Position numbers and translations under genes: made by a program. From the NCBI GenBank assembly GCA_963835575.1, contig CAWIGG010000006.1:368857-432856 (forward strand): a stretch of 64,000 nucleotides of DNA, given 5' to 3'. Below the pieces are notes generated by a model that searched no databases, had not been told where the DNA came from, and worked only from the letters and a program-made list of their open reading frames with translations. Numbering within the stretch: position 1 is the stretch's first letter; the number at the start of each line of letters is the position of its first letter. Shown here one piece after another: positions 38,037 to 62,834 of the stretch. This stretch comes from an uncultured Spirochaetota bacterium. Its GTDB lineage: Bacteria; Spirochaetota; Brevinematia; Brevinematales; JAOACQ01.

Positions 38037-39553
38037 AGTTAAAATCCGGACTGAATGATCATATTACCCGAGAAAGTTATAAAATTATTAAATAAGCCAT
38101 TTTCAATATGACATCGAGTTTTTGTCAAATGTTGTGTATGACATACCCTCTCATTTTTTTATGCTGCCTTTTTTACAAGCTCTCCGTTCTCAAAAACAGC
38201 GCCTTCCAATACAAGGCTAATCTTTTCATAACCTCTTAATTTTCTCCATCGCCTGGATGCCTTATCCAGTAATTTATAGACCATTATTAGAATCGTTTCC
38301 CTGGTTCCGCAGCCTCTCATCTTTTTAGTTCTTAATCGAACTGTAGAGAAGGTAGATTCTATTACGTTTGTCGTACGGATATGTACCCAATGTTCCGCCG
38401 GACAGTTATAAAATTCGATCATAAGCTCCCAATCCTTTTCTAAACATTCGACAGCTGCTGGATATTTAGGATTAAAAACCGCCTGGAATAATTCAAAAGC
38501 TTTGATAGCATTATCCTTATCAGGAGCATTGCATATCTCATGAAGCATCTCTTTTGCCTTTGACTGTAATACTTTGGGCAGCTTGTTTAGAATGTTCTTT
38601 ATCTTATGAACCCAGCATCTCTGCCATCTGGATTCAGGATATACTTCTTTGGCTGCTTTCCAGAATCCAAGGCTTCCGTCTCCGATAAAAAGAATAGGAC
38701 CTTTCAAACCTTTTTCTTTTAGGTTTCTTAATATCCCTAACCAAGTCTCGGAATTCTCTCTGTAACCTTCTTCAACAAGAATAATCTCCTTTTCACCATT
38801 CTCATTGGCTCCGATCATTACAAGAGTGCATAAACGGTCTTCGCTGCCCTGTACATTGAAGTAAATGCCGTCAACCCATATATAGCAATACTTTTTATCG
38901 CTTAAATCGGATGTCCGCCACTCATCATATTCTTTACCCCATCCTTGTTTCATTCTGCTTATACTTGAGGCTGATAATCCTTTCGCTTCTTCACCAAGCA
39001 ATCCTCTCAAGGCATTCTCCATATCCATCTCTGAGACTCCATAGAGATACAACAATGGAATGGCTTCCTCAATTCTCAGGCTTTTTCTCATATACGGCGG
39101 TACTATTAGGCTTTGAAAATTGTCGCCTCCGAGTCGGTTCCTTGTTCTCGGAATACATACATCAATAGCCCCTCCACCAATGAGAATCTGACGGGCTTTA
39201 TGATACCCATTTCTTACTATTGCCTTTCTCCCGTCTTCGATAGTTAAATGCTCTCTCTCCTGAAGAAACCCATTAATTTCATCTTCCAGAGCCTTCTTGA
39301 TTATTTCCCTGGCCCCGATCCTTGCCAATTCTTCAAGACATAAAAATTCTACTGTTTCATCTTGATTAAAAGCCTGTAAGAGCTTAAAATCTTCGTTGTG
39401 CTTCGGCATATGGCGTATTCCTCCTTTTGTTTATTGTCGTAAATAAATTATAGAGGGTACGCCATCTTTTTTATAATATTTATTCCTATACACAACTTTC
39501 TATTATAACTCTATGACATCGCTGATTCATTCGGCAGCTTTTGCGACAGACTC
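38037..39553 (+). mobile_element. Right-end remnant of an IS1182 relative of 48394-52671, itself split by IS256
   Basis: 38037-38115 plus 39521-39553 match ~52560-52671, including TIR GCTTTTGCGACAGACTC followed by the same CCGT target. Confidence 0.85.
38116..39511 (-). mobile_element. IS256-family insertion sequence (transposase 38159-39409)
   Basis: 'YIWVDGIY', 'GDGSLG', 'QRCWVHK', 'IRTTNVIES'; GAGTT...AACTC ends; 9-bp TSD TATGACATC. Confidence 0.93.
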
Positions 39554-39648
39554 CCGTGTTAAACGCTGGCCCGGTCGAAATCGGAACAAATAGCAAAGCC
39601 ACGGATGGCGATGTATGTCAGTAGTTCAACTAATTTAAATAGGAGTTA

Positions 39649-40426: not shown

Positions 40427-42451
<2,025 letters not shown>

Positions 42452-43031: not shown

Positions 43032-44968
43032 AGCTAACGGTGCGGCTAGGCGACGTTTTGCGGCCCGCAGGGTTGGCGCAGTTTTTGCATTTTCAAAGTT
43101 TCCCCTGGAATTTACAAACACCGTTTTTTCAAAACTTTCCTAAATTTATTATATTGCAAAAAACGTGACAAAGCAAAATGTGGCGAAGCCCGAGGAGCGC
43201 AGGTTCGCAAACCGAGCACCGCAGCGCCCAGCCGCTGTTGAGTCTGTCGAAAAAGTGATATTTAATGTAAATTATTATCGATATAGCTTAAAATAATGAA
43301 TGAAATAAATCAATAGCGGAAGGTTATATGGCAAGATACAAGACAGTTAATTATGAGCAGATGGAAATGATACCGCTCAATTTTTCAGATCAGCTGATCG
43401 AAGGAACATATGAACACACACTCAATTTCCTAATCGAGGAAAAGGCTGACCTTTCCTGTTTTGATATAAATTATAAAAATGATAAAACAGGCTCGAAAGC
43501 GATTTCTCCGGCAATTCTTCTGAAAATAATCCTTTTTGCCTATTCGAAAGGTATTACTACATCACGCAGGATTGAGGAAGCTTGCCGGGTGAATGTCATC
43601 TTCAAAGCCCTGTCCGGGAATACCGTTCCAGACCATTCCACTATAGCCGCTTTTGTTACCGGTATGAAAGACCGGATTAAAATAGTATTTCAGTTTGTGC
43701 TGATGGTCTGTTCTTCTGCGGGATTGATCGGCGGGGACATGTTCGCCGTTGACGGCTGTAAATTGCCTTCAAACGCTTCTAAAGAATGGAGCGGTACATT
43801 CAAAGACCTGAAAAAGAAACAGGAAAAGTTTGAAAAGCTGGCGGCATTTCTACTGGAAAAACACGCGCAAGCTGACTGCTCCGGCGAAAATGAAAAGTCT
43901 AAAGCGCTTCAAAAAAGATCGGAAAAAATACGGAAGAAAGCGGAGAAAATCGATGCCTTTCTCAAATCCCAGAATCCCAAATACGGCAAGCGGGGACGTG
44001 AAAACCAATCGAATATTACCGATAACGAAAGCGCGAAAATCAAGAGTTCCCACGGTGTGATACAAGGTTATAATGGACTTGCGGTAGTGGATTCAAAGCA
44101 TCAGGTGATTACCGCGGCGGAAGCTTTTGGTTTAGGCCAGGAAGGGGAAGTATTGAAGCCGATGGTTGAAATAACGGAGGAAAATTTAAGCGTGATAAAA
44201 GGAGAAACAAATCCGCTGGAAGGAAAAACAATACTGGGGGACACGAATTATTTCAGCGAAGAAAATCTAAAATATCTGGCGGAAGAAAAGAAGATGGAAG
44301 CTGTGATACCGGACAATCAATTTCGAGGGAGGGATGAACGGTTTACCGATCGGGGAAGGTTCAAGCCGAAACCGATGAAATACCGGGAACACGATTTTGA
44401 AAAAAATGAAGCTGATAATACTTATATATGCCCGAATGGAAAAATATTAAGCTATAAGGGATACCAGAGGCAATTGAGTAATTTCGGCCATAAATATCAG
44501 GCCAGGCAGGCGGATTGTTCAAAATGCGGGAAAAGGGGACAATGCTTAAAACATCCCGATAAGACAAGGCAAAGAACATTATATCTGGTGGACAAAAGAG
44601 GGGATAAAAACTATTCAAAAGAAATGGTAAATAAAATTGATCTGCCGGAAATCAGGGATTTGTACAGCCGGAGGATGGGAATAATTGAGCCGGTATTCGG
44701 TAACATCCGTTCTTGTAAAGGTATGGACCGTTTTACGCTCAGGGGTAAGAGTAAGGTTAATATCCAGTGGCTTTTGTTCTGTATAGTGCATAATATTGGT
44801 AAAATCCAGATATTTGGTAAGATTTAAGGGGGTGTTCATAGCCATAATACCGGCTTGAAATTGGAAAAATGGAAAATCCGGATAGAGAAATGAAAAATGA
44901 TACTCTATCCGGCTTTCAGAAGACAGTTTTTATTCTCGTTTTTGGCTTTTTCGACAGGGTCGTTGTAC
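43032..44968 (-). other. attC-like site 9 (about 212 bp once the IS is removed)
   Basis: AGCTAAC-GGT-GCGGCTAGGCG ... CGCCCAGCCGC-T-GTT[IS]GTAC. Confidence 0.8.
43240..44961 (+). mobile_element. IS1182-family insertion sequence (transposase 43328-44827)
   Basis: TIR GAGTCTGTCGAAAAAG / GACCCTGTCGAAAAAG; 3-bp TSD GTT; 'PDHSTIA', 'VDG', 'IEPVFGNI'. Confidence 0.92.
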
Positions 44969-44983
44969 GAAGGTCGGGCCATT

Positions 44984-45514
44984 TTAAAAATTATTATTGT
45001 TATTTGTACTATTTATAGAGTCATAAATATTTCTTGATTGTAATATTAATAATTTTTGAACTTCATAAATTGAATTTTTTTCAAAATTTAAATCAAATTC
45101 TCTTCTTATCTTACCATCTCCAAGATAAATATAATTTATATATTGAACTCTATACTTTTTATCTTTTACATCAATAATTATTGTATATTCACACATTGGA
45201 GTTATAAATAGAAATGGGAAATGGACAACTCCTTTCCCAATTATTTTGCCTGTATTTATGTCCTTATTTTGAATAACAGATTTAGAGTCATTATAATTAA
45301 TGGCAATCCAATCTGCTAATTTATTATATATTTCTTCTTTTGTCTGGGAAACTTCATATACCAAAGATAAGTTTGATTCATCTAATAATACAATATGAGT
45401 ATCATTTGTTATTAGGTCGATAAATGATTTTGAACCATTGGTTAAAGTATTTGTTTCACCAAACGAGAAAATATTAACCATAAACAATAAAAATACCATT
45501 AAAGTAATCTTCAT
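44984..45514 (-). CDS. Cassette 9 secreted protein (DUF4468-like)
   Basis: Signal peptide; 'KEEIYNK..DWI...SKSVIQ..D..GKIIGKG', 'IDVKDKKYR'. Confidence 0.65.
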   Translation of the reverse strand: MKITLMVFLLFMVNIFSFGETNTLTNGSKSFIDLITNDTHIVLLDESNLSLVYEVSQTKEEIYNKLADWIAINYNDSKSVIQNKDINTGKIIGKGVVHFPFLFITPMCEYTIIIDVKDKKYRVQYINYIYLGDGKIRREFDLNFEKNSIYEVQKLLILQSRNIYDSINSTNNNNNF

Positions 45515-45557
45515 AAATAAACCTCCATAAAATTCTTTAAAACAATACGCTGGCCGG

Positions 45558-46892
45558 TCCGACTTCAAGACATAGGTTACACTTTAGCTTCAGGACATCG
45601 GTAACCCTTTTTGAGTACAAAATGCCCTTGAATTACTATTTCAGTATAGACCTAAATATAAAAGTATTCAAGTCCATACTACCTATCAGATTATTTTCAA
45701 ACCACACATCCATAAAAGCTTTGCTTTTACTTTTTAAACCAATATGATAACCATCCAACGCATTTGTAATAAATACACGCCGACCTTTATAATAAATGTA
45801 ACCTCTGTTATTAACCTTTCTGCTGATGTATCCCTTGGGATATACAACCCAATCGGCTATCCCATCATAACTCCTAACCGATTTTATATAGACCATTGCT
45901 GGTGTTTTCATTCCAAGGCTTTCATGCGGTCTTTCCTCGTTGAACTCTTTTCTCCATTCGTTGAATACTGCCTGGTGCAGCTTCAGGCTACCGCTGATTT
46001 TGTTTTCCAGTTCCTTTTTCATATCCAGGTGCATCCTTTCATGTGCTCCGTTCTGATAGGGAGAGCCGGGATCAATTCTGTCCAGCTTTATGCCCAGAGA
46101 CAACCACCATGCTGATAGTCTGGTTAAACCAAGTAAACCCTGTGTACTGGCAAACGGCGGCCCATTATCGGATTTTATCATACTCGGTAATCCATATTGC
46201 TTGAAGAGTCTGTCAAATTCAAATTTGACGGAACTAATATCACCTTTTTGCAGTATGGCTATGGATAAAATATATTTGGAATAATCATCACGTACTGTAA
46301 GTGGTTCGCATCTTTCCTGCTCGGAGGTATACCACCAGCCTTTGAAATCCACTGTCCAGATATCATTTGGTTTTTTCGGTGCTACCCTGTTCTGTATTCT
46401 TTCCGGATGTATGTGTCGTCTTCTTTTCCTTAATTCTACAAATCCGGCCTTTTTCAATATCCTTTCGACAGTGCTTAATGAAGGAATTTTATTATCCGGG
46501 TGGTTCCTGACATAAACCGACCTGATTTTCTTAGGTCCCCAATTCTGCTTCGTTTGCTTGATACGGATGATCTCGCAGATTATTTCTTCAGAAAGTTGAT
46601 TAGGGCTTGAAAGCGGTTTCCTAGATTTTTCTTGAAGACCGGACAACCCTTCTTCATAAAACCTTTCTTTCCACTTATAACCGGTTTTTGTGCTGATCCC
46701 ATATTCAGTACAAAGCTCGGTAAAGTTCACACCTTTTTGGAATGACTTTTCAATAAAAGCTAATTTCAGCTTCATGATATTAACCTCCTTCCAGGGCATT
46801 GTCAGCCTCCTTAATGAGATCTGACCTAATTATACCTGGAAAGTGTTACCTATGTCCTGAAGCTTTTCCGTTACCTATGTCCTGATTTCACA
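45558..46892 (-). mobile_element. IS481-family insertion sequence (transposase 45636-46799)
   Basis: 'MPWKE', 'WTVDFKG', 'SDNGPPF', 'NGAHERMH'; TGT start and repeated CAGGACATAGGTAAC motifs; left end degenerate. Confidence 0.88.
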
Positions 46893-46904
46893 AGCCCGAC
46901 TTTC

Positions 46905-47081
46905 GTACAACGGTGGGTATACCTGACGTTTGCGAGCCTTAGAGCCAGGCTTGCCGCTCTTAGGCTCGCAAATGTGCCGAACTTTTTGTCTTTCTCCTCC
47001 GACCTACTTTTCAAAAAGTGAGGCTGAGCACCGCCCGGAACGCCAGTGAGGACGGAGCGGAACAGGTATACTGTGTTATCT
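46905..47081 (-). other. attC-like site 8 (177 bp)
   Basis: GTACAAC-GGT-GGGTATACCTG ... CAGGTATACTG-T-GTTATCT. Confidence 0.85.
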
Positions 47082-47099
47082 GCCGTTGCGAGAATATTT

Positions 47100-48176
47100 C
47101 TAAATAGGTTCAAACTCAATAAATTCAGCTTTATTTGTTTTGAATCTTTGTTTTCTAAAAAGACCAACTTTATTAATATTGATAATTAAACGAAATACAG
47201 AATTCTTTTTATTATATAATTCTCTTACAGCATCACCATTTTCCATATCAATTTGTCTTTTATTTGTTATAAAACCAATTTCAATAAGTTCTCCATATTT
47301 TATAATAATTGGGGAAATAGCATCATCAAATTTTCCTTTTTTATTAATCTTTAATAAATAGCATTCTTCAATTATAGGTTTGTATATTTTCCCATAAATA
47401 TACAATAAAGCTTTTTTTTGAATTAAAATAGGCTTATTACTTAAATTAGTAATAGATATTTTAAAAATCCATCTTGAATTTTTATTGATTATTTTTTCTG
47501 CAATAGGAAAAAATTGATTTGCTTTCTGATAATGTAATTCAATAAATTCTTTTAAATTACTTAAATAATGTTTTAATCCATTAATGTCCCAATATTTTAT
47601 TGTATCAATAAAGTTTGAAAATTTATCAAATAATGGTTTAGTATTTAATTTTCTACCAATTGTTGTTGTATTTTTTGGAAAAGCAATCCAATATGTCCCT
47701 TCATATTCTTTTTCGTCAAAAAATATTTTTATCTTTTCACCATTTGTTTTATCAATAGCTTCATATGGTAGAATCCTATCACCAGCAATTACTTTTGTAA
47801 TCAAGTCGTCAAAATTTTCAATTGAACATAATTTTGAAAAAATTTTTAGTATTGTATTTGAATCATCAGATTCTAATATTTCAAGTAATATATCGTTTAA
47901 ATCTTTACGAACATCTTTAATATACATACATTGCTTTAGAATTTCACCTACTTCGTTTATAGTCATATTTTTTTCAAATGAATCAATATAAACGCAATCT
48001 TTTCCAAGTTCAAAGACAGCTTCATCTTCAATAATTATCTTGTCAGATCCTTTTGTAACAGTTCCATTGACATATAAAATCTCAATGAATGGTTTTACTC
48101 TATTTTGAAATTCACGGAATAGATAACCAATTATTCCAGTTAAAGCAGATAAACCAGCTATTAAATATTCATTCAT
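47100..48176 (-). CDS. Cassette 8 hypothetical protein with N-terminal TM
   Basis: 358 aa, SD AGGAGG, fills the cassette. Confidence 0.75.
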   Translation of the reverse strand: MNEYLIAGLSALTGIIGYLFREFQNRVKPFIEILYVNGTVTKGSDKIIIEDEAVFELGKDCVYIDSFEKNMTINEVGEILKQCMYIKDVRKDLNDILLEILESDDSNTILKIFSKLCSIENFDDLITKVIAGDRILPYEAIDKTNGEKIKIFFDEKEYEGTYWIAFPKNTTTIGRKLNTKPLFDKFSNFIDTIKYWDINGLKHYLSNLKEFIELHYQKANQFFPIAEKIINKNSRWIFKISITNLSNKPILIQKKALLYIYGKIYKPIIEECYLLKINKKGKFDDAISPIIIKYGELIEIGFITNKRQIDMENGDAVRELYNKKNSVFRLIININKVGLFRKQRFKTNKAEFIEFEPI

Positions 48177-49627
48177 TTAATACCTCCTTTCATTTCTCGC
48201 AATGGCAGATAACGGTCGGCACAGGCGAAGTTTGCGAGCCTTAGAACTGCTCCGCAGTTCTTGGCGAGCAAATTTGGTGAGCCCCGCGTTTTTCTCCTGC
48301 GGCCTGCTGACGGCGGGGCGAACCCGAGGAGCGCACCCTGATTTTGCTACCCCGTTTTGCTTTTGAAGGGGAGCACCGCAGCGCATGTGCCGTGAGTCTG
48401 TCGCAAAAGCTCTTCATGTACATTTTTCATAACTTACGATAGAATATAATAAAACCATATTTAAGAGGTGTCAAATGCTGGGGAAATTCAAAAAATATAT
48501 TCGCGATCAAATCTACTGGCTGACCGTCGATCCCGACAAAATCAGGGAAAACAATCCGCTGGTCAAAGTCATTGACGATTATGTTGAGAGCTATATTTCC
48601 CCCGCTGAATTTGCCGTTAAACTGCGGAATCAAACAACGGGAGCAAAAGCGGTCAACCCTACAATGATGCTGAAAGTCCTTTTTTACAGCTTCGCGTCCG
48701 GTATTTACACTTCACGTAAAATAGAAAAAAGGATGAAAAACGACCTGAACACGATTTATCTCGCGGGAAATACCACCGTTGACCACAGTAATATCTGTAG
48801 ATTTATCAATAAATACCTGGATGAAATCGTTAGTATTTTCGGGAAAATGGTATACATTCTGGCGAAATCGGGTTTTATCAGTTATGAACTGGAAGCTATA
48901 GACGGTACAAAGATAAAGGCATCGGCCAACAGGAATTTCACGGGGAATGCGAAGGAATTCCGGGATAAAAAGGATAAAATCGAGGAAAAGATCTTAAAAA
49001 TCCTCCAGGAAACGGTGAACAGCAATACCGATGATAAATATTCCAAAAGGATGGCAAATAAACTCAAGAAGTTTGAACAGCAGAAATCCGGGATAGATAA
49101 ATTTCTGAAAACAGTTGAGGACAGGAATTTAGACGAAACGGAAAGCGTAAACCTGACAGACAAAGACGCCAGGTTAATGAAAATGAATAACGGATCAATC
49201 GGCCCCGGGTATAATTGCCAGGCCGCCGTTGACAGTAAAAATGAATTTCTCACGGGCGCGATGGTATCAGACTGCGCAAGCGACCGTAACCTTGCTGTCC
49301 CGATGATAGAGGAAGTAATGGATCACCAGGAAGAGCCGAAGGAAGACACAAAGTTCACGCTGGACGCCGGATATTTCACATCGGATAATATCCAATACGG
49401 TGAAGATAAAAAGATCGACCTTTATATCCCCGAAGGAAAAGAAGATGGAAAATCCGGACGAAACATGCCGGGGTTCCGGGTGAAACATGCCACCCAATCC
49501 GTGTGAAACATGCCGGGTAATCCGGATGAAATGTTACCACCTACCATAAGAAAAAGCGAATCAAACACGAAGAATTCCTCCGAGAATGTTAAGCTAATCC
49601 TTCTTGAAAAAATAAGAAGGAGTTGGT

Positions 49628-51184
49628 ATGCCGAACAGGAGGAAGCCTATGAAGAAAATCCGGGAAGTGATCCGGATGATCAAAGAAAACGGCCTGAGCT
49701 GCCGTGTGACATCAAAGGCCCTGGATATTTCCAGGCCAACCGTGCAAAGATATATATCCAGGTTTGAAAAAAGCGGCCTAACCATCGCGGAAATTTATGA
49801 AATGAGCGATTCTGCTTTAATTGAAATTTTCGAATCGATGGCAGAAGGTGACAGTCAGGAAGAAACCGAAAAGGATAATCTGTACAATGAATTCCCCGAA
49901 TACAGTAAGGAACTACTGCGTACAGGCGTCAATCTGAGATTGCTTTGGGAAGAATACCTGAGAAAATATCCAGGAGGCTATCGCTATTCTCAATTCTGCT
50001 ATCACTACGGCATCTGGAAAGGTTCTCTTGAAATATCCATGCACCAGGAATACAAGGCCGGAGACAAGCTTTTTGTTGATTTTACCGGCGCGAAATTTCC
50101 GATTGTAGACCGTTCCACAGGAGAAGTTATAGAGAAAGAGGTATTCGTAGCCATTCTTGGAGCAAGCCAGTATACATATGTGGAAGCGACGGATAGCCAG
50201 AAGAAAGAAGACTTAATCAGGGCTATCGAGAACGCGTTGTATTACTTCGGAGGATCACCAAGAGCCATAATACCCGATTGTTTAAAAAGCGCTGTAACGT
50301 TGGGCAATAAATATGAACCTGCAATTAATTCTGAATTTCAGAATTTTTGCAGACATTATTCTATGTGTCCCCTCCCTGCAAGACCATATAAACCGCGAGA
50401 TAAAGCACACGTTGAAAACGCCGTAAAAATCACCTACAGCTGGATATTTGCCGTTCTCAGGAATAGAGTTTTTTATACTCTGGGAGAATTGAATATTGCT
50501 ATACGGGAACAATTGGGAATCTATAATTCAAAGAAGATGCAGAAGCTCAAAGTCAGCAGGCGGGAATTTTTCGAGGAAACAGAACGGAAAGAGTTAAAAC
50601 CGCTTCCGAAGGAAAGATACAGTTTTAAAAGCTTCTCAAAAGCTAAGATCCAATTCAACTATCATGTCTGTCTCAAAGAAGATTCTCATTACTACAGCGT
50701 TCCATATCGATATAGAGGCAAAATGGCAGATATTGTTACTTCCGATCGGACAGTGGAAATATTTGTTGATAATATCCGCATTGCAGCCTATCCACGGGAC
50801 CGTAGAAAGCAAGTTTATACAACCACACATGAACATATGCCGCCCCATCACAGGTGGGTCGGAGACTGGAATCCGGAGAAGTTAACACATTGGGGTAAGT
50901 CGCTTGGTCCGGATGTTGAAGAAATGATAAAGAGAGTCCTGCAAAGCAGGGATTATCCAGAACAGGCATATAAGGTCTGTCTGGGCATCTTAAGCCTGGC
51001 CAAAAAACTCGGAAAAGAAAGGCTCGATAAAGCCTGTAAACGGGCGCTTGATTTTCAGTATTATTCATATCAGGGAATAAAGCGGATTCTGGAGAAAGGC
51101 CTGGATAATTTTGAGGAAGAATCGGTACTGTTTCCGGCCGTTAAGATGCATGAAAATATCCGCGGAAGAGAATATTTTGAATAG
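49628..51184 (+). CDS. istA: IS21 transposase
   Basis: 'GDKLFVDF', 'PDCLKSAV', 'PRDKAHVE'. Confidence 0.93.
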   Translation: MPNRRKPMKKIREVIRMIKENGLSCRVTSKALDISRPTVQRYISRFEKSGLTIAEIYEMSDSALIEIFESMAEGDSQEETEKDNLYNEFPEYSKELLRTGVNLRLLWEEYLRKYPGGYRYSQFCYHYGIWKGSLEISMHQEYKAGDKLFVDFTGAKFPIVDRSTGEVIEKEVFVAILGASQYTYVEATDSQKKEDLIRAIENALYYFGGSPRAIIPDCLKSAVTLGNKYEPAINSEFQNFCRHYSMCPLPARPYKPRDKAHVENAVKITYSWIFAVLRNRVFYTLGELNIAIREQLGIYNSKKMQKLKVSRREFFEETERKELKPLPKERYSFKSFSKAKIQFNYHVCLKEDSHYYSVPYRYRGKMADIVTSDRTVEIFVDNIRIAAYPRDRRKQVYTTTHEHMPPHHRWVGDWNPEKLTHWGKSLGPDVEEMIKRVLQSRDYPEQAYKVCLGILSLAKKLGKERLDKACKRALDFQYYSYQGIKRILEKGLDNFEEESVLFPAVKMHENIRGREYFE

Positions 51185-51196
51185 GAGGAACTGAAT

Positions 51197-51940
51197 ATGA
51201 CCAATGAAGCAACTATTGAAAAAATGCAGAAGATGAAACTGCATGGGATGTCCAGGGCGTTTGAGGATATCATTGCCGGTAAAACGCCTGACGGCCTGAC
51301 TGCCGATGAAACAATTGCGCATCTTGTGGATTCGGAATGGGACGAAAGGTATAATCGGAAACTGTCATCTTTAATCAAAAGAGGGCGTTTCAGATATCAG
51401 GCTGGTCTGGAGAATCTTTCTTACCGTGCGGATAGAGAACTGGATAAAAATCTGATATTGAGGCTTTCGAATTGTGATTGGATACGAAAGAAAGAAAATA
51501 TGATTATTACAGGCGCTACCGGCAGCGGGAAAAGCTATCTTGCATCAGCTTTCGGTAATCAGGCTTGCCGGCAGGGCTACAGGACCCTTTATTTCAACTG
51601 TTTGAAGATTTTTACCCGGTTAAAATTCGCAAAAGCGGAAGGTAGTTACTCAAAAGAAATGAATTTTATCCAGAAGCAGGATTTATTGATACTGGATGAT
51701 TTTGGTCTTGAAATTCTTGATACACCCTCAAGATTGTCTCTTCTGGAAATGCTTGAGGACCGGCATGGTAAAAACTCTACTTTGATAACTTCTCAGCTGC
51801 CGGTAAAAGATTGGTTTGAAAAAATCGGTGATCCTACGATAGCTGACGCAATCTGTGACAGGATAAATCATTCTGCTATTAAAATCGAATTGAAGGGGGT
51901 TGATTCTATGCGTAAAATTTATGCTAAAGATTCTGGATGA
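51197..51940 (+). CDS. istB: IS21 helper ATPase
   Basis: 'GATGSGKS', 'LLILDDFG', 'ADAICDR'. Confidence 0.93.
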   Translation: MTNEATIEKMQKMKLHGMSRAFEDIIAGKTPDGLTADETIAHLVDSEWDERYNRKLSSLIKRGRFRYQAGLENLSYRADRELDKNLILRLSNCDWIRKKENMIITGATGSGKSYLASAFGNQACRQGYRTLYFNCLKIFTRLKFAKAEGSYSKEMNFIQKQDLLILDDFGLEILDTPSRLSLLEMLEDRHGKNSTLITSQLPVKDWFEKIGDPTIADAICDRINHSAIKIELKGVDSMRKIYAKDSG

Positions 51941-52745
51941 AACATGCCACCTGCCTTAAAATGTTTTGGGAATTTTAGTGTTTTGAAAAGTGGTAACATT
52001 TCGCCCGGAACCCCGGCACATTTCACCGGAATACGCAAAGAAGAAGACGGAAGTCCGAAAAAGAGAAAGAACAAGGATAAAATAACATCCAAAGACTGTG
52101 AATTAATAATTGACGGTAATATCAGGAAAATCAAATGCCCCGGAGGCCAGATTATGTGCGCGGAAAGAGCTTATAATGATCGGGGAGTCAAGAATTACCG
52201 TTTCTATCCAAAGCGCGAGTTGTGCAGGAAATGCAAGCTGCTTTCAAATTGCGCCGGTAAGCTGGAAGCATTAAAAAACAAACGGTTTAATGTAAAATAT
52301 GAATATTTTGAAACGGTTGAATTAAGGCGCAAGATGAAGGAAAAGCTTAGGAGTATTGAAGGTAAAAGAACTTATAATGAACGTGCCTGCCTGATCGAGC
52401 ACATTTTCGGGACGATAAAAGAATACTTCAACTTCGGAAGGTTTTACTACCGCGGTCTGGATAGTGTAAACACTATCTGGCATATGGTCTGCATTGCGTA
52501 CAATTTCAGGAAAATGGCGGCTTTGGGGATTAAATTGTAGGATTAGGGGCAGGAGATACAGTTAAAATCCGGACTGAATGATCATATTACCCGGGATGGT
52601 TTGTAAAATTATTAAATAAGCCATTTCAATATGACATCGCTGATTCATTTTATTGCTTTTGCGACAGACTCCCGTGTTGTGCGATGGCCGGGCCAATAAT
52701 TATATAATTATGATAAGCCACGGATGGCGTTTTGTGATAATATAT

Positions 52746-53210
52746 TTAATCGGCAATTGTTGTTAAATATTTTTTAGAAAGACGTTCTAAACCACTACCG
52801 ATTGTGCTAATTTTATCAGGATATCCTTCATGTGCGTATTTAATATATTCTTTAACACCTTTATTTTTTGTTAAAATATATAGAATGTCTAAAAAAGAAT
52901 CCGAATCTTCCTTTTTAATAAGTTTCAGGGAATCGTAATAATATAAAATATCAATGTTATTTAAAAGAATGTTTAAAGGATATGAAAAATTCTTCGAATC
53001 ATTTAAATTATTTAGACTTTCGTTTTCTAACTTCTCATATAAATCTGATAACTCATGATTATTCAGTTCATTATAGAGATTTTTTATTAACTCAATTCTT
53101 TTCAACTGAAAATCTTTTCTGTACCTAAAAAAGGCCAGGAATAATCCTAAAATTCCAAGAATGGTGATAAAATTAGCAATCACTTTGATAATTTCAGCTA
53201 CTTCTTTCAT
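52746..53210 (-). CDS. Cassette 7 hypothetical protein with N-terminal TM
   Basis: 154 aa, AAGGGG SD, flanked by GCCATCCNTGGC hairpins. Confidence 0.72.
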   Translation of the reverse strand: MKEVAEIIKVIANFITILGILGLFLAFFRYRKDFQLKRIELIKNLYNELNNHELSDLYEKLENESLNNLNDSKNFSYPLNILLNNIDILYYYDSLKLIKKEDSDSFLDILYILTKNKGVKEYIKYAHEGYPDKISTIGSGLERLSKKYLTTIAD

Positions 53211-53278
53211 AAATTTCCCCCTTATTTTCCCGCCAAGGATGGCGGGTATCTTTTATAAAAAGCCTTGGCCCGGCTTTC

Positions 53279-53501
53279 GCACAACGGCAGGCATACACGA
53301 CGTTTCGCGGCCCGTCAGGGTTGGCACGTGTTTTTGCCATCTTGCTGTAAAGCTTTACTATAAATACTATCATTTTTGAACATAAGATTCCCTCTTTAAA
53401 GAAATTACAGGCAAAAATCCGTGCCAAAGCGAAATGTGGCGAAGCCTGAGCACCGCGCGCAGTTTACGAGCACGGAGCGGAACGTGTATGCCGTGTTAAA
53501 C
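53279..53501 (-). other. attC-like site 6 (223 bp)
   Basis: GCACAAC-GGC-AGGCATACACG ... CGTGTATGCCG-T-GTTAAAC. Confidence 0.85.
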
Positions 53502-53519
53502 GCAGTTTCGCCAGCAGTT

Positions 53520-54416
53520 TTATAGAACTAGCCAATTGTTATTCGAAAATATAATTGTATAGTTAATCGGACTTTTAGTTTCACTCGATAATTTAGTAAT
53601 GATAATCTTTTCATTATTAATCCATTTTACTTCTCTTATTTCAGAATCATCTCTTGAGTCTTGTAATAATTCACATTCTTTTTCAAAATTGGTTTTGTTA
53701 ATTTTCCAAATTTCAGTATGATTTATTGAATATACACCATAAGAAGCAATTAAAAATCTATTAGTATTTGGAGAAAATAATGGTATGTTATTAATCTTCT
53801 TTGAAAATCCATTTCTAAAATTAATTAACAAAAAATCACCACCTTCATAATAAATATCTTCTACTAGATAATAGCCTATATCATTAAGAAAATCATAATA
53901 ACAATAGTGATCTCCTTTTTCATCATCATTATTTGGATAATAAAGCTTCTTTTCATTAATTAAATTGATAGCTAACCCATTATTATTTCGATTAAAAAAA
54001 TCTGATTGGTTTGATAATTGATATTTTTCAATAGCTTTTGCTGCCTCATAACCATTATCATATTTTGATATAATTGATTTTAAAATTATCTCTCTATTAT
54101 TAATAAAATTAGAATTAAATTGAACTGGTTCTAAAAATCCACCGAAAATATAACCAGTGGAACTATCATCAAGAGTAATCTTATACCAATAGTTTTGGTG
54201 ATTTTTAATTTTAGAAATAATATTAGTTAAAAACAAATCAGTTAACAAGCTTCCATGATTTAATTGTAAAAGTATTTTGGACTTTATATTAGGTTTTTCT
54301 CTTACGAATGATGAAGAAGCTGTTACTTTGCATATTTGATCAGGATAAAATCGAACAATTTTTGTAGAACAACTTGTGAAAATAATAATAATAAAAAGTA
54401 TTAATATTCTATTCAT
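53520..54416 (-). CDS. Cassette 6 lipoprotein with SH3b-like domain
   Basis: Lipobox 'FTSC'; 'VREKPN..SKI..L..G...WYKI...GYIFGGFL'. Confidence 0.75.
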   Translation of the reverse strand: MNRILILFIIIIFTSCSTKIVRFYPDQICKVTASSSFVREKPNIKSKILLQLNHGSLLTDLFLTNIISKIKNHQNYWYKITLDDSSTGYIFGGFLEPVQFNSNFINNREIILKSIISKYDNGYEAAKAIEKYQLSNQSDFFNRNNNGLAINLINEKKLYYPNNDDEKGDHYCYYDFLNDIGYYLVEDIYYEGGDFLLINFRNGFSKKINNIPLFSPNTNRFLIASYGVYSINHTEIWKINKTNFEKECELLQDSRDDSEIREVKWINNEKIIITKLSSETKSPINYTIIFSNNNWLVL

Positions 54417-54442
54417 ATCATAACTCCTGCTGGTGAAATTGC

Positions 54443-54580
54443 GTTTAACGGTCGGCATAGCTGACGTTTCTGAGCCTTAGAAAACGTTAGTTTTCTTGGC
54501 GAAGAAATGTGTCCGAAGGACCGAGGAGCGCCCGGAGCCCGCAGGCGAGGACGCACCGGAGCAGCTATGCCGTGTTATGC
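54443..54580 (-). other. attC-like site 5 (138 bp)
   Basis: GTTTAAC-GGT-CGGCATAGCTG ... CAGCTATGCCG-T-GTTATGC. Confidence 0.85.
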
Positions 54581-54867
54581 GATGCCGGCTCTCGACTTCC
54601 ACCTCGCACGGCAAACCTAATTGTAATATTTTCAACTAAATATATCAACTATGAAAATGGATTTCCCGTTCTTTTATTCCGTTTCATTTTTTTTAATTTC
54701 AAGATTTAAAAATCAACAAAGTATGAAAATTAAAAATCCAGTTTTCCCTTTTTCCAAAATTTTAAACCTTAAAGTTCAAACATCAACCGGTTTGCCGTGC
54801 CCTTCCAGAAACAGACCCTTCAGCTTTTTGTTTTTCAGAACTGAATCCAGCAGCCGGTTTCGCATAA
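54581..54867. other. ORF-less cassette 5 body
   Basis: No convincing ORF; internal IR GCACGGCAAACC ... GGTTTGCCGTGC. Confidence 0.7.
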
Positions 54868-55038
54868 CGGTCGGCGTTTGCGAAGCCGGCGAGGCTTAGA
54901 GCTTCGCTCTTGCCGAGCCGGTTTGGTGAGCCTTGCGTTGCGCTTCTCCGGCCTACCTATGGCAAGGCGAACCCGAGCACCGCAGCCCGTAGCGACTGAG
55001 CGGAGGGCGAGGAGCACAGCGCAAACGCCGTGTTGGGC
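54862..55038 (-). other. attC-like site 4 (177 bp)
   Basis: GCATAAC-GGT-CGGCGTTTGCG ... CGCAAACGCCG-T-GTTGGGC. Confidence 0.85.
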
Positions 55039-55056
55039 GAATGTAGCGTGCGACTT

Positions 55057-55551
55057 TTATAATTTAAGCATTTCTGCATGTGCTTTTTTCGTTGCAGCAT
55101 TGAAAGTATCATTCATTTCTATCATTTTATCGAAACTTCCGCCTTTTTTTAACATATCAGAAATATATGATAATATTTCAGTTGCTTTTTCTATCACATC
55201 TTTTCGATTAATTGGTGACAATGATGTAAGTCTTTTTATTCTCATTTCAAGTTCTGGTAATTTTGAATTAAGCTCAGTGCATTCTTTTTGATATTTTATT
55301 CCAATTTCGTTATTTACATCTTTTAATGATTTTAATTGATGTAATAATGTCATATATCGTTCAACACATTCCATAAATTCTTTACAGGATAGAAAAAACT
55401 CATCCGCCCATTTTCTATTAAAATCATATTTTTTTGATACTTCATTTTTAATACTTTCAATACGGCGTAATATAATTATTCCAAAGATGCTTGCAATTAT
55501 AGGTGTTAGAAGAGATACAACAACTTTTGTATATTCAATGTTCCAATTCAT
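55057..55551 (-). CDS. Cassette 4 hypothetical protein with N-terminal TM
   Basis: 164 aa, SD AAGGAGG. Confidence 0.75.
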   Translation of the reverse strand: MNWNIEYTKVVVSLLTPIIASIFGIIILRRIESIKNEVSKKYDFNRKWADEFFLSCKEFMECVERYMTLLHQLKSLKDVNNEIGIKYQKECTELNSKLPELEMRIKRLTSLSPINRKDVIEKATEILSYISDMLKKGGSFDKMIEMNDTFNAATKKAHAEMLKL

Positions 55552-55591
55552 ATTTTATGTCCTCCTTAATAATATATCCGCACGCTATTTC

Positions 55592-55761
55592 GCCCAACGT
55601 TTTGCGGCTAAACGAAGCCGCTGAGCCGTACAGCTCCGCTGTAGGCGAAGCGGTTTGGTGAGCCCTGCGTCCTTCTTCACCGTCCTACCCACGGCAGGGC
55701 GAGCCCGAGGAACGGAGCCGTCGCAACGGCGAGTACCGCAGCGTTTTAGCCGCTGTTAAGC
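55592..55761 (-). other. attC-like site 3 (170 bp)
   Basis: GCCCAAC ... GCGGCTAAACG ... CGTTTTAGCCGC-T-GTTAAGC. Confidence 0.85.
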
Positions 55762-56765
55762 GATGGCCGGCATTCTGTTACAAACCAATTTAATCCGCAC
55801 GATATTTTAACAAAAAAGGAATTCTATAACAAGATTCTTTAAGATTATTAGAAAGCTTATAATAAAGTCGGAATTAACAAAAGCGGTATTACACTTATAA
55901 TAACAAATAATCAATATCGGTATAATAAACTTTTGTAGATTTAAAACCTTAATTGAATATTTCATCAGGATTAATCAAAAAGAGTGTCGGTAGAACCCCG
56001 GGAATCAAAGAAATATTCTCCTATAATCCGCTTTTGACTTATACTATAAAACTTCGCTTTTATTCAAACAACCCAACATTACAAAATTTTTAAAAACAAA
56101 AGGCCGTGCGGATTCGGTTGTATCCAGGGAGTATTTTAAAACAAGCTTTAATCGCATTAAAATCTGCCGGCTTTCGCTTAACGTTTCGCGGCTAAACGAA
56201 GCCGCTGAGCCGTACAGCTCCGCTGTAGGCGAAGCGGTTTGGTGAGCCCTGCGTCCTTCTTCACCGTCCTACCCACGGCAGGGCGAACCCGAGGAACGGA
56301 GCCGTCGCAACGGCGAGTACCGCAGCGTTTTAGCCGCTGTTAAGCGATGGCCGGCATTCTGTTACAAACCATTTTAATCCGCACGATATTTTAACAAAAA
56401 AGGAAATCTATAACAAGATTCTTTAAGATTATCAGAAAGCTTATAATAAAGTCGGAATTAACAGGAGCGGTATTACACTTATAATAACAAATAATCAATA
56501 TCGGTATAATAAACTTTTGTAGATTTAAAACCTTAATTGAATATTTCATCAGGATTAATCAAAAAGAGTGTCGGTAGAACCCCGGAAATCAAAGAAATAT
56601 TCTCCTATAACCCGCTTTTGACTTATACTTTAAAACTTCGCTTTTATTCAAACAACCCAACATTACAAAATTTTTAAAAACAAAAGGCCGTGCGGATTCG
56701 GTTGTATCCAAGGAGTATTTTAGCATAAGCTTTAATCGCTTTTAAATCTGCCGGCTTTCGCTTAA
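55598..56765. repeat. Tandem near-identical ORF-less cassettes 2 and 3 (584 bp each)
   Basis: 55598-56181 and 56182-56765 differ only by scattered substitutions. Confidence 0.9.
56176..56345 (-). other. attC-like site 2 (170 bp)
   Basis: Near-identical to attC 3. Confidence 0.85.
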
Positions 56766-56934
56766 CGGTGCGGCGTTTGCGAAGTCGCTGAGGCTTAGAA
56801 AATGTTCACAATTTCAAGCCGAAGCGATTTGTCGAACATTTTGTCCTTCTTCTCCGTCCTACCCGACAAAAGGTGAGACCGAGGAGCGCGCGCAGTTTAC
56901 GAGCACGCACCGCAGCGCAAACGCCGTGTTGTAC
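56760..56934 (-). other. attC-like site 1 (175 bp)
   Basis: GCTTAAC-GGTG-CGGCGTTTGCG ... CGCAAACGCCG-T-GTTGTAC. Confidence 0.85.
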
Positions 56935-56965
56935 GCAAGCCAACCGCAAAATGGTGTTTTATATC

Positions 56966-58153
56966 TTAATCTAAAGTAAAATTAGTAGAGTAAAATATAT
57001 TAGTCATAATGATAATATTGCTAAGATTCCACCCTGTATTTTCAAAAGACAAATGCTTTTTTATTGTGTTAATATCATCACTAATTCGATCAGGATGATT
57101 GATAACTTGTGTTTTACTTTTATAACCAAGCGTACTTCGCGAGTCATTGATAAAATCATAAGAACCTAAGAAGTAAATCCCTTGTTTGTTAATCGAAAAA
57201 TCTATGCTGGCATTTGGGTAGACAAAATGATTGCCAGGGCTACCAAGTTCTAAAACGAAACTTCCATCTAAAATTTTAGTTCCATCTGGAATAGATTCTT
57301 CAGTAAAACTGACAGTTTCATCAGAACCTTCTTTTGATAATTCTAATTTCTTAATTTTATATTTTCCTGCGGGTAAACCGTTGAAAAAGCAAAGTTTAGT
57401 AAAAGGATATTTAACACTATAACTGTATAATTTCTTTGAATCCTTGTTGATTAAATAGATGGAAGAGATTTCAGAGAAATTGGTCCTTTCATCATCAATA
57501 AGAGTTATATTTGATATATATATGACAGCAATTGAAAGATTGTTTGACAATTTTGCCAAGTTATAATTATACACTTTTGTTTCTGGAATAATAGAAATTG
57601 AATTTTTAGTAATATTTGGGAATTTAAGAGACGTTTCATTGTCTGTGTTATTTTTATTAGTATATATTATTGGTTCGTTATAGCGAGGTTTATATGACCA
57701 ATCACCGATATACACATATTGATTTGCTGGAATTTCTATTTCAGTATGTTTTAATGGTTTAAAAATCTTATCACTTGGATAATTTGTAATTGAATAAACT
57801 TCTGTGATGTCGTTGAACCAATAATAAGTATTAATATTTCTCCCATAAGATTCTGTAAAGCTAAACAATTCATATTTTCCAGCGGGTATTTCATATGCGA
57901 ATATTATATTAGAACCTTTATCATCATAAGTTTTTAAAGTATAGTCATAAAATTTGTCTTTTTTTCTATTATAAAAAGAGAAACTTACTAAAGATTCTGA
58001 ATAAGGTAAATCAATAAATTTTCCATAAATAACAGAACTGTCTTTACCAGATAAAACGGAATCTTTTTTGATCATATTATTAGTGGTTGCACAAGAAGTA
58101 ACTAGAAGTGCAAAAGCAAAAAACCATAAACACTTTGTTTTCTTACAATACAT
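56966..58153 (-). CDS. Cassette 1 lipoprotein (two related domains)
   Basis: Lipobox 'VTSC'; repeated 'PAGKY' ... 'Y(I/L)G.(W/Y)' pattern. Confidence 0.75.
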   Translation of the reverse strand: MYCKKTKCLWFFAFALLVTSCATTNNMIKKDSVLSGKDSSVIYGKFIDLPYSESLVSFSFYNRKKDKFYDYTLKTYDDKGSNIIFAYEIPAGKYELFSFTESYGRNINTYYWFNDITEVYSITNYPSDKIFKPLKHTEIEIPANQYVYIGDWSYKPRYNEPIIYTNKNNTDNETSLKFPNITKNSISIIPETKVYNYNLAKLSNNLSIAVIYISNITLIDDERTNFSEISSIYLINKDSKKLYSYSVKYPFTKLCFFNGLPAGKYKIKKLELSKEGSDETVSFTEESIPDGTKILDGSFVLELGSPGNHFVYPNASIDFSINKQGIYFLGSYDFINDSRSTLGYKSKTQVINHPDRISDDINTIKKHLSFENTGWNLSNIIIMTNIFYSTNFTLD

Positions 58154-58195
58154 ACAAATACTCCTTTAATAAAATTTATTTTGCGGTCGGCTTGC

Positions 58196-58265
58196 GTACA
58201 ACTCTTTATATACGCAATGCGTATAACTACCCAAATTCAGAGGGATATCCGCACTGCGTATATCC
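58196..58265 (-). other. attI-like primary recombination site
   Basis: GTTGTAC core (58202-58196) with no attC arm upstream; two related palindromes at 58209-58225 and 58243-58265. Confidence 0.75.
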
Positions 58266-58290: not shown

Positions 58291-59346
58291 TCATATCGTT
58301 CCCATTCTATCTAACGGGCTGATGATCTTTCTCAAGTCTTTCTCCGCGACATGGGTATAAATCTCAGTGGTTTTACTGGATTCATGTCCAAGAATTTCTT
58401 GTATATATCGAATATCCGTTCCATTTTCAAGAAGATGCGTTGCAAAAGAATGCCTCAAAGAGTGAACGCTCGCATTTTTCTTAATACCGGTTTTAATAAT
58501 TCCCTGTTGAAAAATTGCTTGAACTGTCCGGCCGCTGATTTTTAATCCTTTTCCCTGACCCTCAAAAAGCCAATTCTGAGGCTGATAGTTCTGGATATAC
58601 ATTTTCAATAATGGCATGATATTATCGGACAGTAAGGTATAACGGTCTTTCTTGTTTTTAGAAGCCCGGATGTGGATCAGTTTCCGCTCTTTATCAATAT
58701 CAGCTATCTGCATATTAACCGCTTCGGATAACCGGAGTCCTGCGGAATAAATCAGGGTTATGATCAGCCTGTGTTTAATATTTTTGTAACTGTCAATAAG
58801 GGCCTTTACTTCCTCTTTGCTCAGTATCGCCGGCAGCTTTTTATCTTTCTTTGCCCGCTTTACCCGGTAAACAAAATCTTTCCCTAATATTACTCCGTAA
58901 TAAAACCTCAGGGCATTGACGGCGCAGTTGAGCGTGGAAGCTGCGGCTTTCTTTTCATCGGCCAGGTAATCCAAGTAATTTTTAATGTCCTGCGAATTGA
59001 CCTCTTCCGGCGCCTTATTCAAATATTCCAGCATGGAAATATTATACCTGGAATACGATTCTTTTGTTTTCCTGCTGTACCCGCGGATGCGGGTTTCCCG
59101 CCCGATCGCGGCCTGAACGGGATTTTCATCCGCGTTCTTTATGGAAACGTCGAAATACTGCTCAATTAAAAGCCGCGCCTGCGGAGTATCGGGGATCAGC
59201 CAGGTTTTTTTACCGGCGTCCCATTTCCGGCCGGGGATAATGCGTACTTTCTGCAGAAGACTCTGGGCACGGGGTATGGACAATTCAATCAGGCAGTCGC
59301 CGTTGAGAGCCGCGGAAACTTTTTTTATTTCAAATCTGTCAGCCAT
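58291..59346 (-). CDS. Tyrosine recombinase (integron-like integrase without the IntI insertion, extra N-terminal domain)
   Basis: 'YSAGLRLSE', 'KNKKDR', 'HSLRHSFATHLLENGTDIRYIQEILGH.SSKTTEIYTHV...SPLD'. Confidence 0.92.
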   Translation of the reverse strand: MADRFEIKKVSAALNGDCLIELSIPRAQSLLQKVRIIPGRKWDAGKKTWLIPDTPQARLLIEQYFDVSIKNADENPVQAAIGRETRIRGYSRKTKESYSRYNISMLEYLNKAPEEVNSQDIKNYLDYLADEKKAAASTLNCAVNALRFYYGVILGKDFVYRVKRAKKDKKLPAILSKEEVKALIDSYKNIKHRLIITLIYSAGLRLSEAVNMQIADIDKERKLIHIRASKNKKDRYTLLSDNIMPLLKMYIQNYQPQNWLFEGQGKGLKISGRTVQAIFQQGIIKTGIKKNASVHSLRHSFATHLLENGTDIRYIQEILGHESSKTTEIYTHVAEKDLRKIISPLDRMGTI

Positions 59347-60626: not shown

Positions 60627-60726
60627 GAAAACCCCCCGCAATAATGGAATCAGAAATAATCAGCGTTAATCTTAAGTTGTAAAATTCCCCCGAATAGTAT
60701 TATTGTATCGTACGAAACAAAGGATG

Positions 60727-61398: not shown

Positions 61399-61418
61399 TA
61401 TACCTCATGAAAAAAATA

Positions 61419-61447
61419 TTGACAATATTTATTTTTGAATATATAAT
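61419..61447 (+). promoter_or_regulatory. Consensus sigma70 promoter divergent from the XRE gene
   Basis: TTGACA-17 bp-TATAAT. Confidence 0.75.
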
Positions 61448-61725
61448 TGGTCATTATGAATGGCCTTTATTATCATATTGTAATATTTATTTTCTTATTG
61501 AAGTATTTGTTAGCTAAATACTTCTATTACTTTATTCTAATTTTACCAAAAGATTATTGACGAATTAAAAGTATATAATATTGATTTTTTTATATCAAAT
61601 ATTTACTAATAAACTATTGATAAAATAAGGGTTGTCGACCTTATCAGAAAAAATTTGGTGTAGGTAATTTTAGAATATTTTATGTTATTATTATGGTATC
61701 TTTTTGATTTATCTACACCGAAACA

Positions 61726-61760
61726 GCCCGATAAGCGCGACAACGCTATCGGGCATTTTT
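61726..61760 (+). terminator. Terminator-like hairpin (or oriT-type IR) upstream of the rep/mob operon
   Basis: GCCCGATAAGCG-CGACAA-CGCTATCGGGC followed by ATTTTT. Confidence 0.5.
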
Positions 61761-61774
61761 ATTAGGGGATAATT

Positions 61775-62029: not shown

Positions 62030-62127
62030 ACCTCTCATAAGAGGAGAAAGAGCGGGTAGTGTTGGAATTAATGCCTTTCATCGGAGTAATTTATTTAATC
62101 AATAGTTTTGTAATCCTGGGGAAAGTA

Positions 62128-62799: not shown

Positions 62800-62834
62800 T
62801 ATAAGCATTGAGCTGATAAAGCAAAGGAGTCGGC

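Follow-up and report, generated by a model that had tools for sequence, protein, structure and literature searches.

The stretch of DNA analysed here (64,000 nucleotides, henceforth the window, from a contig of an uncultured Spirochaetota bacterium of the order Brevinematales) carries a gene for a tyrosine recombinase followed, on the same strand, by an attI-like insertion site and an array of cassettes separated by nine long sites resembling attC, the cassette recombination site of integrons. The recombinase (351 amino acids; 58291..59346, minus strand) is co-oriented with the cassettes, lacks the ~40-residue insertion (I2) of integron integrases (IntI), and begins with an alpha/beta domain of ~70 residues (59125..59346, minus strand) that is HARP-like in homologues. 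The attI-like site (58196..58265, minus strand) has its core GTT at 58200-58202 and, upstream of it, imperfect palindromes at 58209-58225 and 58243-58265. From there the cassettes, all on the minus strand, alternate with the sites, which are given on the plus strand: cassette H (56928..58202; open reading frame (ORF) at 56966-58153, 395 amino acids, no family; its ends are 25-nt inverted repeats) and site 9 (56760..56934, 175 bp, predicted to form a four-way junction on the bottom strand); a first copy of cassette G (56339..56766, 428 bp, no ORF longer than 53 amino acids) and site 8 (56176..56345, 170 bp); a second copy of cassette G (55755..56182, 96.7% identical to the first) and site 7 (55592..55761, 170 bp); cassette F (55032..55598; ORF 55057-55551) and site 6 (54862..55038, 177 bp); cassette E (54574..54868, 295 bp, without a minus-strand ORF of at least 70 amino acids) and site 5 (54443..54580, at 138 bp the shortest; folding z -5.05); cassette D (53495..54449; ORF called at 53520-54458, with a weak SH3_3 match) and site 4 (53279..53501, 223 bp, with a branched arm at the helix termed P2 below); cassette C (52676..53285; ORF 52746-53210), whose site, site 3 (48208..48393 joined to 52676..52682, 193 bp), is split by an insertion sequence (IS); cassette B (47075..48214; ORF 47100-48176) and site 2 (46905..47081, 177 bp); and cassette A (44962..46911; ORF 44984-45568, DUF4468, with an IS481 element at about 45565-46885 in front of the gene), beyond which lies site 1 (43032..43243, counted as 212 bp in an earlier annotation; its last 4 nt belong to an IS).

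That first-pass annotation, made by a model from the sequence letters, had described nine sites reading AAC, a spacer of 3-4 nt, an arm of ~11 bp, an A(A/C)G bulge and, after the returning arm, T-GTT. All nine AAC...T-GTT sites are indeed present on the plus strand at the lengths listed above. Framed as a rule, the pattern matched the eight uninterrupted sites on the plus strand and none on the minus strand, and in shuffles of the region it gave no match in 297 of 300 and one match in each of the remaining three. The reported asymmetry of the spacer, 3 against 1, is genuine and family-wide, although the 5' spacer, which begins with a G opposite T, actually measures 3-5 nt; in the two 170-bp sites it reads GTTT(T/C) and the 3' arm has one additional T. 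Arm sequences do differ from site to site with pairing retained, as borne out by the 33 distinct cores compared below. What did not survive is the bulge: the A(A/C)G bases are present but paired with T(T/G)T (A-T in 33/33, A-T or C-G in 33/33 and G·T in 33/33), and they open helix P2. Of the proposal that recognition is structure-based with a different bulge code, the first half holds, in that these are attC-like cassette sites in which pairing is conserved over sequence, whereas the bulge code falls. Nor can length, put forward as a distinguishing feature, separate the two classes, because canonical sites of IntI integrons from the same phylum attain 143-173 nt. The annotation overlooked the junction, a G·T at pair 14, 22-bp cassette-end repeats and the recombinase without the IntI insertion, which are the subjects of what follows.

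Since the sites sit between minus-strand ORFs, the plus strand is the 'bottom' strand in integron terms and, when both strands were folded as the annotation had advised, it folded better in 32 of 37 sites. A nucleotide hidden Markov model of the site gave 52 matches in the genome, mostly within six arrays; together with 11 from two relatives these made up 63 records, from which 34 sites with 33 distinct cores were parsed. On the plus strand, all 33 cores parse as a gap-free four-way junction in the order AAC, a G opposite T (27/33), a 5'-arm bulge of 2-4 nt, P1 (11 bp), P2, P3, P4 and a return to P1; in none of them does the junction contain an unpaired base. The junction pairs are G-C, A-T and G-C in 33 cores each and, for the fourth (P4.1), C-G in 25 and T-A in 8. 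The third pair of P2, which is pair 14 counted from the foot, is G·T in 33/33; P4 begins with GA opposite GNA and, in 32/33, has an A·A at its centre between covarying pairs; long P3 arms have GA/GA following three pairs in 18 of 20, and short ones are closed by C-GNA-G in 13 of 13. P1 is free of bulges in 24 cores and has one additional base, at varying positions, in the other nine. Sheared G·A tandems and C-GNA-G loops are particularly stable in DNA, and occurrences on the bottom versus the top strand number 182 versus 32 for YGAR and 122 versus 35 for CGNAG. Compensatory changes were found in P1, P2, P3 and P4, including the junction pair P4.1. As the parser had chosen partners by pairing, the count was repeated on a structure-blind MAFFT alignment of 14 sites, in which 94.2% of the cells pair and 23 of 37 pairs are altered on both sides; none of 500 shuffles reached the observed pairing, and slid controls gave 34-41%. 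A covariance model, another check advised at the outset, was trained on 14 sites from the genome, of which five lie in the window, and recovered window sites left out of training, the four held-out sites scoring 59.6-157.9 bits; site 3, which when joined lies outside the training set, scored 127.7 bits. Covariation shows in this way that the bottom strand maintains a fixed predicted fold with a gap-free four-way junction.

For comparison with canonical attC we used the features given by Bouvier et al. (2009; PMC2727003); here and below, each cited source is represented by its accessible part. The inverted R-box triplets AAC and GTT are present in all nine sites, and their outer four bases fit RYYY/RRRY loosely. 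For L''/L' boxes, which in canonical sites stand 5 and 5-6 nt from the R boxes and have an extrahelical G, no site of the 34 attains 6 of the 7 pairs with an extrahelical base, whichever orientation is tried, the best being 4; on shuffles the same rule reached 6 pairs in 22 of 3400, and the best of the real sites resembles the shuffles. The positive controls for this rule had been chosen by the rule itself. The 33 cores show no second extrahelical T on the R''-L'' arm at a distance of 6-8 nt from the G; their conserved T at pair 14 faces a G and is not extrahelical. This T was considered as a candidate for the second extrahelical T and rejected: its position fits if the first is removed, but by the shared ACAT motif the two T's lie two bases apart. 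An unpaired central spacer of ~5 x 5-6 nt is likewise absent from the sites, which have 3-5 versus 1. Our own canonical model (R2), built from 26 sites of class 1 and 2 plasmid integrons and of same-phylum IntI arrays, found 0 of the nine sites at E<=10 with filters off, and it gives 20-65 bits to canonical sites held out of its training, among them two of 173 nt; the junction-site covariance model, in turn, had no match in 18 canonical loci. Five control genomes were termed Treponema-like by inference from their 62-69-nt sites and co-oriented IntI. The misfit to the canonical code that had been claimed is therefore upheld by both the R/L/extrahelical-base rule and the canonical covariance model. 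One branch module, which on the bottom strand reads GTTGGC...GTGACAAA...AAAT, recurs in 4 of 34 junction sites and, among the long canonical sites of IntI arrays from the same phylum, in 6 of 10, with 0 matches in 10,000 shuffles; its carriers include L252, L255 and L256 among the long canonical sites and 43032-43243 in the window. This resemblance suggests that canonical and junction sites may draw terminal parts from a common source.

Comparison of the arrays within the genome indicates where cassettes are exchanged. The recombinase gene has near-identical copies on contigs C7 and C1, and a paralogue with 47% identity on C2. An identical attI-like sequence on C6 (the contig of the window) and C7 precedes different first cassettes, the change falling exactly at GTT, which is the basis for its attI role, and a single site body precedes five different flanks that diverge from GTT onwards. 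Counted from attI, the cassette order is H-G-G-F-E-D-C-B-A on C6; G-I-G-G and then E, with cassette F cleanly lacking, on C7; and R-W-G-G-D-G-V-U-T-S at the end of C2, where cassette D has other neighbours. The ORF-less cassette G is present in eight copies over three arrays, in two versions that are 96.7% alike, and could hold a promoter, a small RNA or a binding site. By these alignments, cassettes span GTT to AAC, bear their own site body and are gained, lost and reordered exactly at GTT, with a putative crossover resolvable to the GTT triplet and no finer. In one public DNA run (5% of words present, mostly IS sequence) no cassette excision joint was seen. An array at C2:2028355 starts at an attI-like site without an adjacent recombinase, with an IS upstream, and its first cassette is identical to the first in the array of the paralogue at C2:46 kb. 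Solitary sites also occur away from arrays in the genome, and hybrid sites (C2:3622, C2:249325, C3:551, C3:3540 and L032:15823), in which the 5' arm is of one site type and the 3' arm of another and P1 is thus broken, look like deletions that arose when recombination took place within the conserved body of the site.

Cassettes have matching ends as far as position ~22 from GTT, in 10-17 of 19 cassettes at each position from 12 to 22, compared with 22-33% for non-cognate cassette ends. The repeat is broken at position 11 (match in 1/19), where the bottom strand has T·G in 16/19. In 56 canonical cassettes of same-phylum IntI arrays, the end match ceases at position 8. The long outer stem is formable only in an excised circle or a tandem duplicate; in modelled cassette circles it brought a gain of 12-16 kcal/mol in four cases, a fifth having been excluded as three bases out of register.

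The recombinase scores 212 bits with TIGR02249, under the cut-off of 265, and 238 with NF040815, over the cut-off of 220. Its catalytic residues R205, K230, H295, R298, H321 and Y330 are present and are invariant across 57 homologues. In the I2 region there are 24 residues between aligned blocks versus 66 in VchIntIA, and the R-to-H spacing is 90 residues versus 130-131 in intact IntI, so that the IntI-specific I2 insertion is missing; no canonical IntI was found in the genome (one check scored 10 of 43 candidates). Pfam HARP matches weakly in 40 of the 57 homologues at E<=0.1 (best E 2.4e-6) but not in the window recombinase itself, whose N-terminal domain in fold searches gave the T4 MotA C-domain (Z 5.5, root-mean-square deviation 2.2, 62 aligned), UvsW (Z 4.4) and SMARCAL1 HARP (Z 4.1, root-mean-square deviation 1.9, 46 aligned), all within the range of noise. 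The same N-terminal domain is borne by same-phylum canonical IntI at L234, L238, L240 and L245 (E 1e-6 to 1e-12). That the HARP-like domain goes specifically with junction sites was considered and rejected, given its presence in canonical IntI and its absence from some relatives. At the attI-like site, inverted repeats begin about 10-13 nt from GTT, often around CCC-AAAT-GGG (window 58209-58265 and relatives, compared at L205, L207, L209, L211, L063, L068 and L070); their folding z goes down to -12 with little strand preference, and pairing is kept while sequence differs between genomes.

Members of the recombinase family occur in 13 of 60 relatives of the present genome and in 30 of 101 genomes drawn from the order to which a Flavobacteriaceae genome belongs, and arrays start directly behind the recombinase at a fixed GTT in many unrelated genomes. 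Scanning 41 loci with the first 11 pairs only as query returned 81 raw matches, amounting to 57 distinct sites at 17 loci, mostly of Flavobacteriales, that adjoin related recombinases; a loose stem scan over 200 loci was too noisy for counting and was not used. Pair 14 is never Watson-Crick in these 57 sites; it is G·T in 48, and every one of the 57 has T on the 3' side. Pairs 12, 13 and 15-20 pair in 45-53, leaving the helix unbroken to pair 20, and the spacer is 5 versus 1 in 52. Because the related helices continue to pair 20 and have G·T at pair 14 in 48/57, the shared core is a helix of ~20 bp with a wobble at pair 14, and in the lineage of the window two hairpins are inserted on the 3' strand of this helix, separating pair 11 from pair 12. 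The junction model matches 7 of 61 genomes, every one in the family of the window; weaker four-armed sites lie next to recombinases in one other same-phylum genome and in one record titled Bacillota. IntI forms one clade in a quick tree and junction-type recombinases do not; the tree has many open forks, and we draw no order of events from it. Among the relatives, L031 (genome G007) has, ~6300 nt downstream of the recombinase, a minimal 46-nt site consisting of P1 and a short hairpin with G·T at pair 14, a candidate for a naturally occurring minimal substrate. On L121, a viral contig from IMG/VR, several related multibranched sites adjoin an insertion-less recombinase that lacks the N-terminal domain. 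Plasmids of Acinetobacter and Klebsiella carry shortened relatives annotated as TnpF or tyrosine recombinase, and tetX and catB11 have been reported near a 'XerD' gene in Chryseobacterium (PMC11194056). Since some relatives adjoin IS91 transposases without an array, in operon fusion at L285 and L123, the protein family alone is no proof of a cassette system.

We consider that the sites probably serve cassette recombination in an integron-like system whose enzyme is the insertion-less tyrosine recombinase next to them. P1 would stack on P2 to give a helix of ~20 bp with G·T at pair 14, as the junction-free related sites would form. It seems rather likely that the folded bottom strand of the circular cassette, with its outer stem extended to ~22 bp, would be cut at AAC and exchanged with the attI-like site in integron fashion. 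There is perhaps an even chance that the strand is marked by G·T pairs and purine mismatches instead of extrahelical bases; on the opposite strand, G·T would become A·C and the purine mismatches pyrimidine mismatches. More tentatively, the junction might be a handle peculiar to this lineage, which the HARP-like domain could grip or which could block second strand exchange, and the candidates for avoiding that exchange without I2 would be the junction, the spacer bulge and the N-terminal domain. On the broadest reading, for which and against which we see about equal grounds, there would be a second, widespread integron class in which the recombinase is without I2 and the cassette sites without extrahelical bases; the recombinase would read a 20-bp G·T-marked single-strand helix, and the site in this spirochaete family would offer a preformed immobile Holliday-like junction as substrate.

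Several points weigh against this interpretation. The evidence is comparative and comes from sequence, so that catalysis and single-strand use are inferred. As to the fold, 26 of the 63 records were dropped before parsing (9 without an anchor, 7 with a weak P1 and 10 duplicates) and three more afterwards (2 degenerate and 1 without P4), leaving the 34 sites; the parser picked P2' and P4 by best pairing, the structure being read from the same sequences, and the shuffle counts are not probabilities, because the sites are related. When five full-length sites from four new genomes were inspected by eye, two fitted in full, one had A-T at pair 14 and two were degenerate. Energy gaps between the strands are small, about 2 kcal/mol, minimum-energy folds often put P3 and P4 wrongly, and canonical sites show the same motif bias in weaker form (102 versus 57). 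Four of 13 canonical IntI also have the HARP-like domain, several recombinases whose sites are junction-free do not, and two relatives have sites and no recombinase match (G004, 94% complete, and G009, 57%). Finally, the differences of the arrays on C1 and C7 may reflect several strains in one assembly; the junctions are precise even if they do.

The main rival, which we regard as unlikely, is classical duplex recombination by the two-exchange Xer/Cre route, with the fold selected for another step, be it cassette genesis, single-stranded transfer or regulation. It would suit a recombinase that has no I2, which in integrons blocks second cleavage (PMC4792948), and that is equally close to archaeal XerA and IntI, as well as attI-like inverted repeats with little strand preference; the 22-bp end repeats, too, could serve as two symmetric duplex binding arms, but in a duplex circle a site body of 140-250 bp would separate them. 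Duplex recognition also sits poorly with P1, which lies beside the crossover and retains its pairing despite sequence change, and with mismatches that on one strand are G·T and not A·C, be it at the core, pair 14 or outer position 11 (16/19). Hairpins with GNA loops are typical of the ends of elements moved by single-strand transposases. Together with the solitary sites outside arrays and the recombinase relatives that adjoin IS91 transposases, they bring to mind ends of non-autonomous elements moved by an HUH, IS91- or REP-type transposase, the recombinase being a bystander or helper; this we find quite improbable, as arrays start at a fixed GTT behind the recombinase, both for the two paralogues here and in many unrelated genomes, the array contains no HUH transposase gene, and the GTT...AAC layout of the cassettes is that of integrons.

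C-GNA-G loops are a DNA-type motif, and the favoured strand is antisense to the genes; both speak against the fold acting as RNA, whether as terminator, processing site or antisense RNA, as do rearrangement breakpoints at the foot of the stem and the lack of an Rfam match. Covariation cannot distinguish RNA from DNA, and the multistem intergenic DUF1874 motif was first found as an RNA candidate (PMC5737381), so that an RNA role keeps a slender chance, on a par with that of transposon ends. Least credible of all is that the sites are canonical attC that have diverged, their canonical IntI having been lost or left out of the assembly. In favour are the AAC/GTT core and the G after AAC, common to attC (PMC2727003), the branch module shared with long canonical sites of the phylum, and a genome that is 94% complete; such sites would not explain why 0 of 34 sites pass the L-box rule (best 4), why the canonical model finds 0 of 9, why no IntI was found in the genome, or why the site geometry follows insertion-less recombinases across phyla.

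The preferred reading, an integron-like system, can be set beside the nearest known ones. Canonical integrons, including the co-oriented ones of Treponema (Wu et al. 2013, PMC3607928), have, as here, a recombinase, attI and co-directional cassettes, and further common traits are the GTT...AAC layout, crossover at GTT, a G after the bottom-strand AAC and favoured folding of the bottom strand; in Treponema chromosomal integrons the integrase is likewise co-oriented with the array, and long, branched sites occur (PMC3607928). Unlike canonical integrons, the present system has no I2 and no L box with extrahelical G or T; its additional bases lie on the opposite arm, adjoining the cut site, P1 is a continuous helix of 11 bp, a gap-free four-way junction stands at a fixed place, the G·T at pair 14 is invariant, and the ends of its cassettes are complementary over ~22 bp rather than 8. 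The system works like an integron yet is without two of its defining features, I2 and the L box with extrahelical bases.

Also near in layout are the rAID-1 arrays of Bacteroidales, in which a XerD-like recombinase is followed by co-directional low-GC genes with repeats 'reminiscent of integrons' (Ross et al., 10.1101/471110); shared features are at least two co-directional low-GC genes downstream and repetitive intergenic motifs. The criterion for rAID-1 is a recombinase >44% identical to B. fragilis BF9343_RS08045 (10.1101/471110). A B. ovatus plasmid locus of rAID-1-like layout has an insertion-less recombinase with 44% identity to that of the window over residues 90-344; the two are not sisters in the quick tree, and the repeats of the B. 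ovatus locus are short hairpins of ~45 nt ending in ATT, whereas the window sites end in GTT. Unlike rAID-1, our host is outside Bacteroidales and the cassette cargo is not immunity genes; the accessible text on rAID-1 (10.1101/471110) reports the motifs and calls the arrays restricted to Bacteroidales, and it describes neither a fold nor a crossover point nor the lack of the insertion. According to Smyshlyaev et al. (2021; PMC8138268), an 'integron-like' recombinase subgroup conserves the insertion incompletely, and the insertion is essential for integron function; in the accessible part of that paper, insertion-less members are given no cassette arrays or sites, in contrast to the array here. 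The DUF1874 motif (Weinberg et al. 2017, PMC5737381), a multistem element of consecutive intergenic regions, was considered a possible attC beyond hairpin complexity; unlike at the window sites, no integrase was seen next to it, and, compared by description, a distant kinship is possible. No account of the present site architecture was found in the literature searched, which leaves out subscription papers and some supplements that were beyond reach, and no such sites are described in the accessible parts of Cury 2016, Ghaly 2021 (two papers), the Darracq 2024 preprint or PMC11194056.

Other features of the region concern mobile elements and cargo. An IS1182-family element (43240..44961, plus strand) is inserted at the GTT of site 1, with GTT duplicated, and another, with a nested IS21 (48394..52671, plus strand), directly before the GTT of site 3, with CCGT duplicated. 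The 3' end of a tenth site remains at 39551..39565 (plus strand) behind an IS1182 end, and the array extends this far. IS1182-family elements occur at the foot of sites at 43240-44961, 48394-52671 and 39530-39555 in the window, and also on C2, C3, C5 and elsewhere on C6: one type duplicates GTT, several of its copies coming after the GTT of a site, and the other enters just before GTT with a 4-base duplication and uses non-site targets too. A group II intron (40427-42451; reverse transcriptase 40613-41980) lies within the array on the cassette strand, outside any site; its reverse transcriptase has nearly identical copies on C2, C4 and C5, and it is preceded by a short GGCATCCTTG motif resembling GCCATCC(T/G)TGGC, of which there are four occurrences in the window array and two elsewhere. 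In an Rfam scan of 37-60 kb of the window this intron was the sole match, with none at the sites. Family scans of the array proteins detected no HUH transposase gene and, among the 9 cassette ORFs, no immunity family; PADLOC gave one weak partial match on these 9. Upstream of the recombinase, 59394-64000 holds broken pieces of a type I methyltransferase, a helix-turn-helix regulator and a fragment of a TrwC-like relaxase. Because ~5.8 kb of this upstream region is repeated on C1 and C7, the recombinase/cassette platform may ride a mobile element.

Integron chemistry has been held to rest on a matched pair, the extrahelical bases of attC and the I2 domain that grips them, and the origin of this pair has been called a chicken-egg paradox (Escudero et al. 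2016, PMC4792948). The integron variant described here is far from the canonical form in both protein and site, and a recently shuffled array without extrahelical bases and I2 makes the question of origin testable by a standard assay. Its site grammar (a 3-5 versus 1 spacer, G·T at pair 14 and extended end repeats) provides a means to detect arrays that canonical models miss, and a gap-free junction kept by covariation in single-stranded DNA would be both an unusual natural structure and a new tool for structure-specific recombination. If our reading is true, a natural single-stranded DNA junction would itself be the recombination substrate, and the system would be a living model of the state that preceded the co-evolution of I2 and extrahelical bases.

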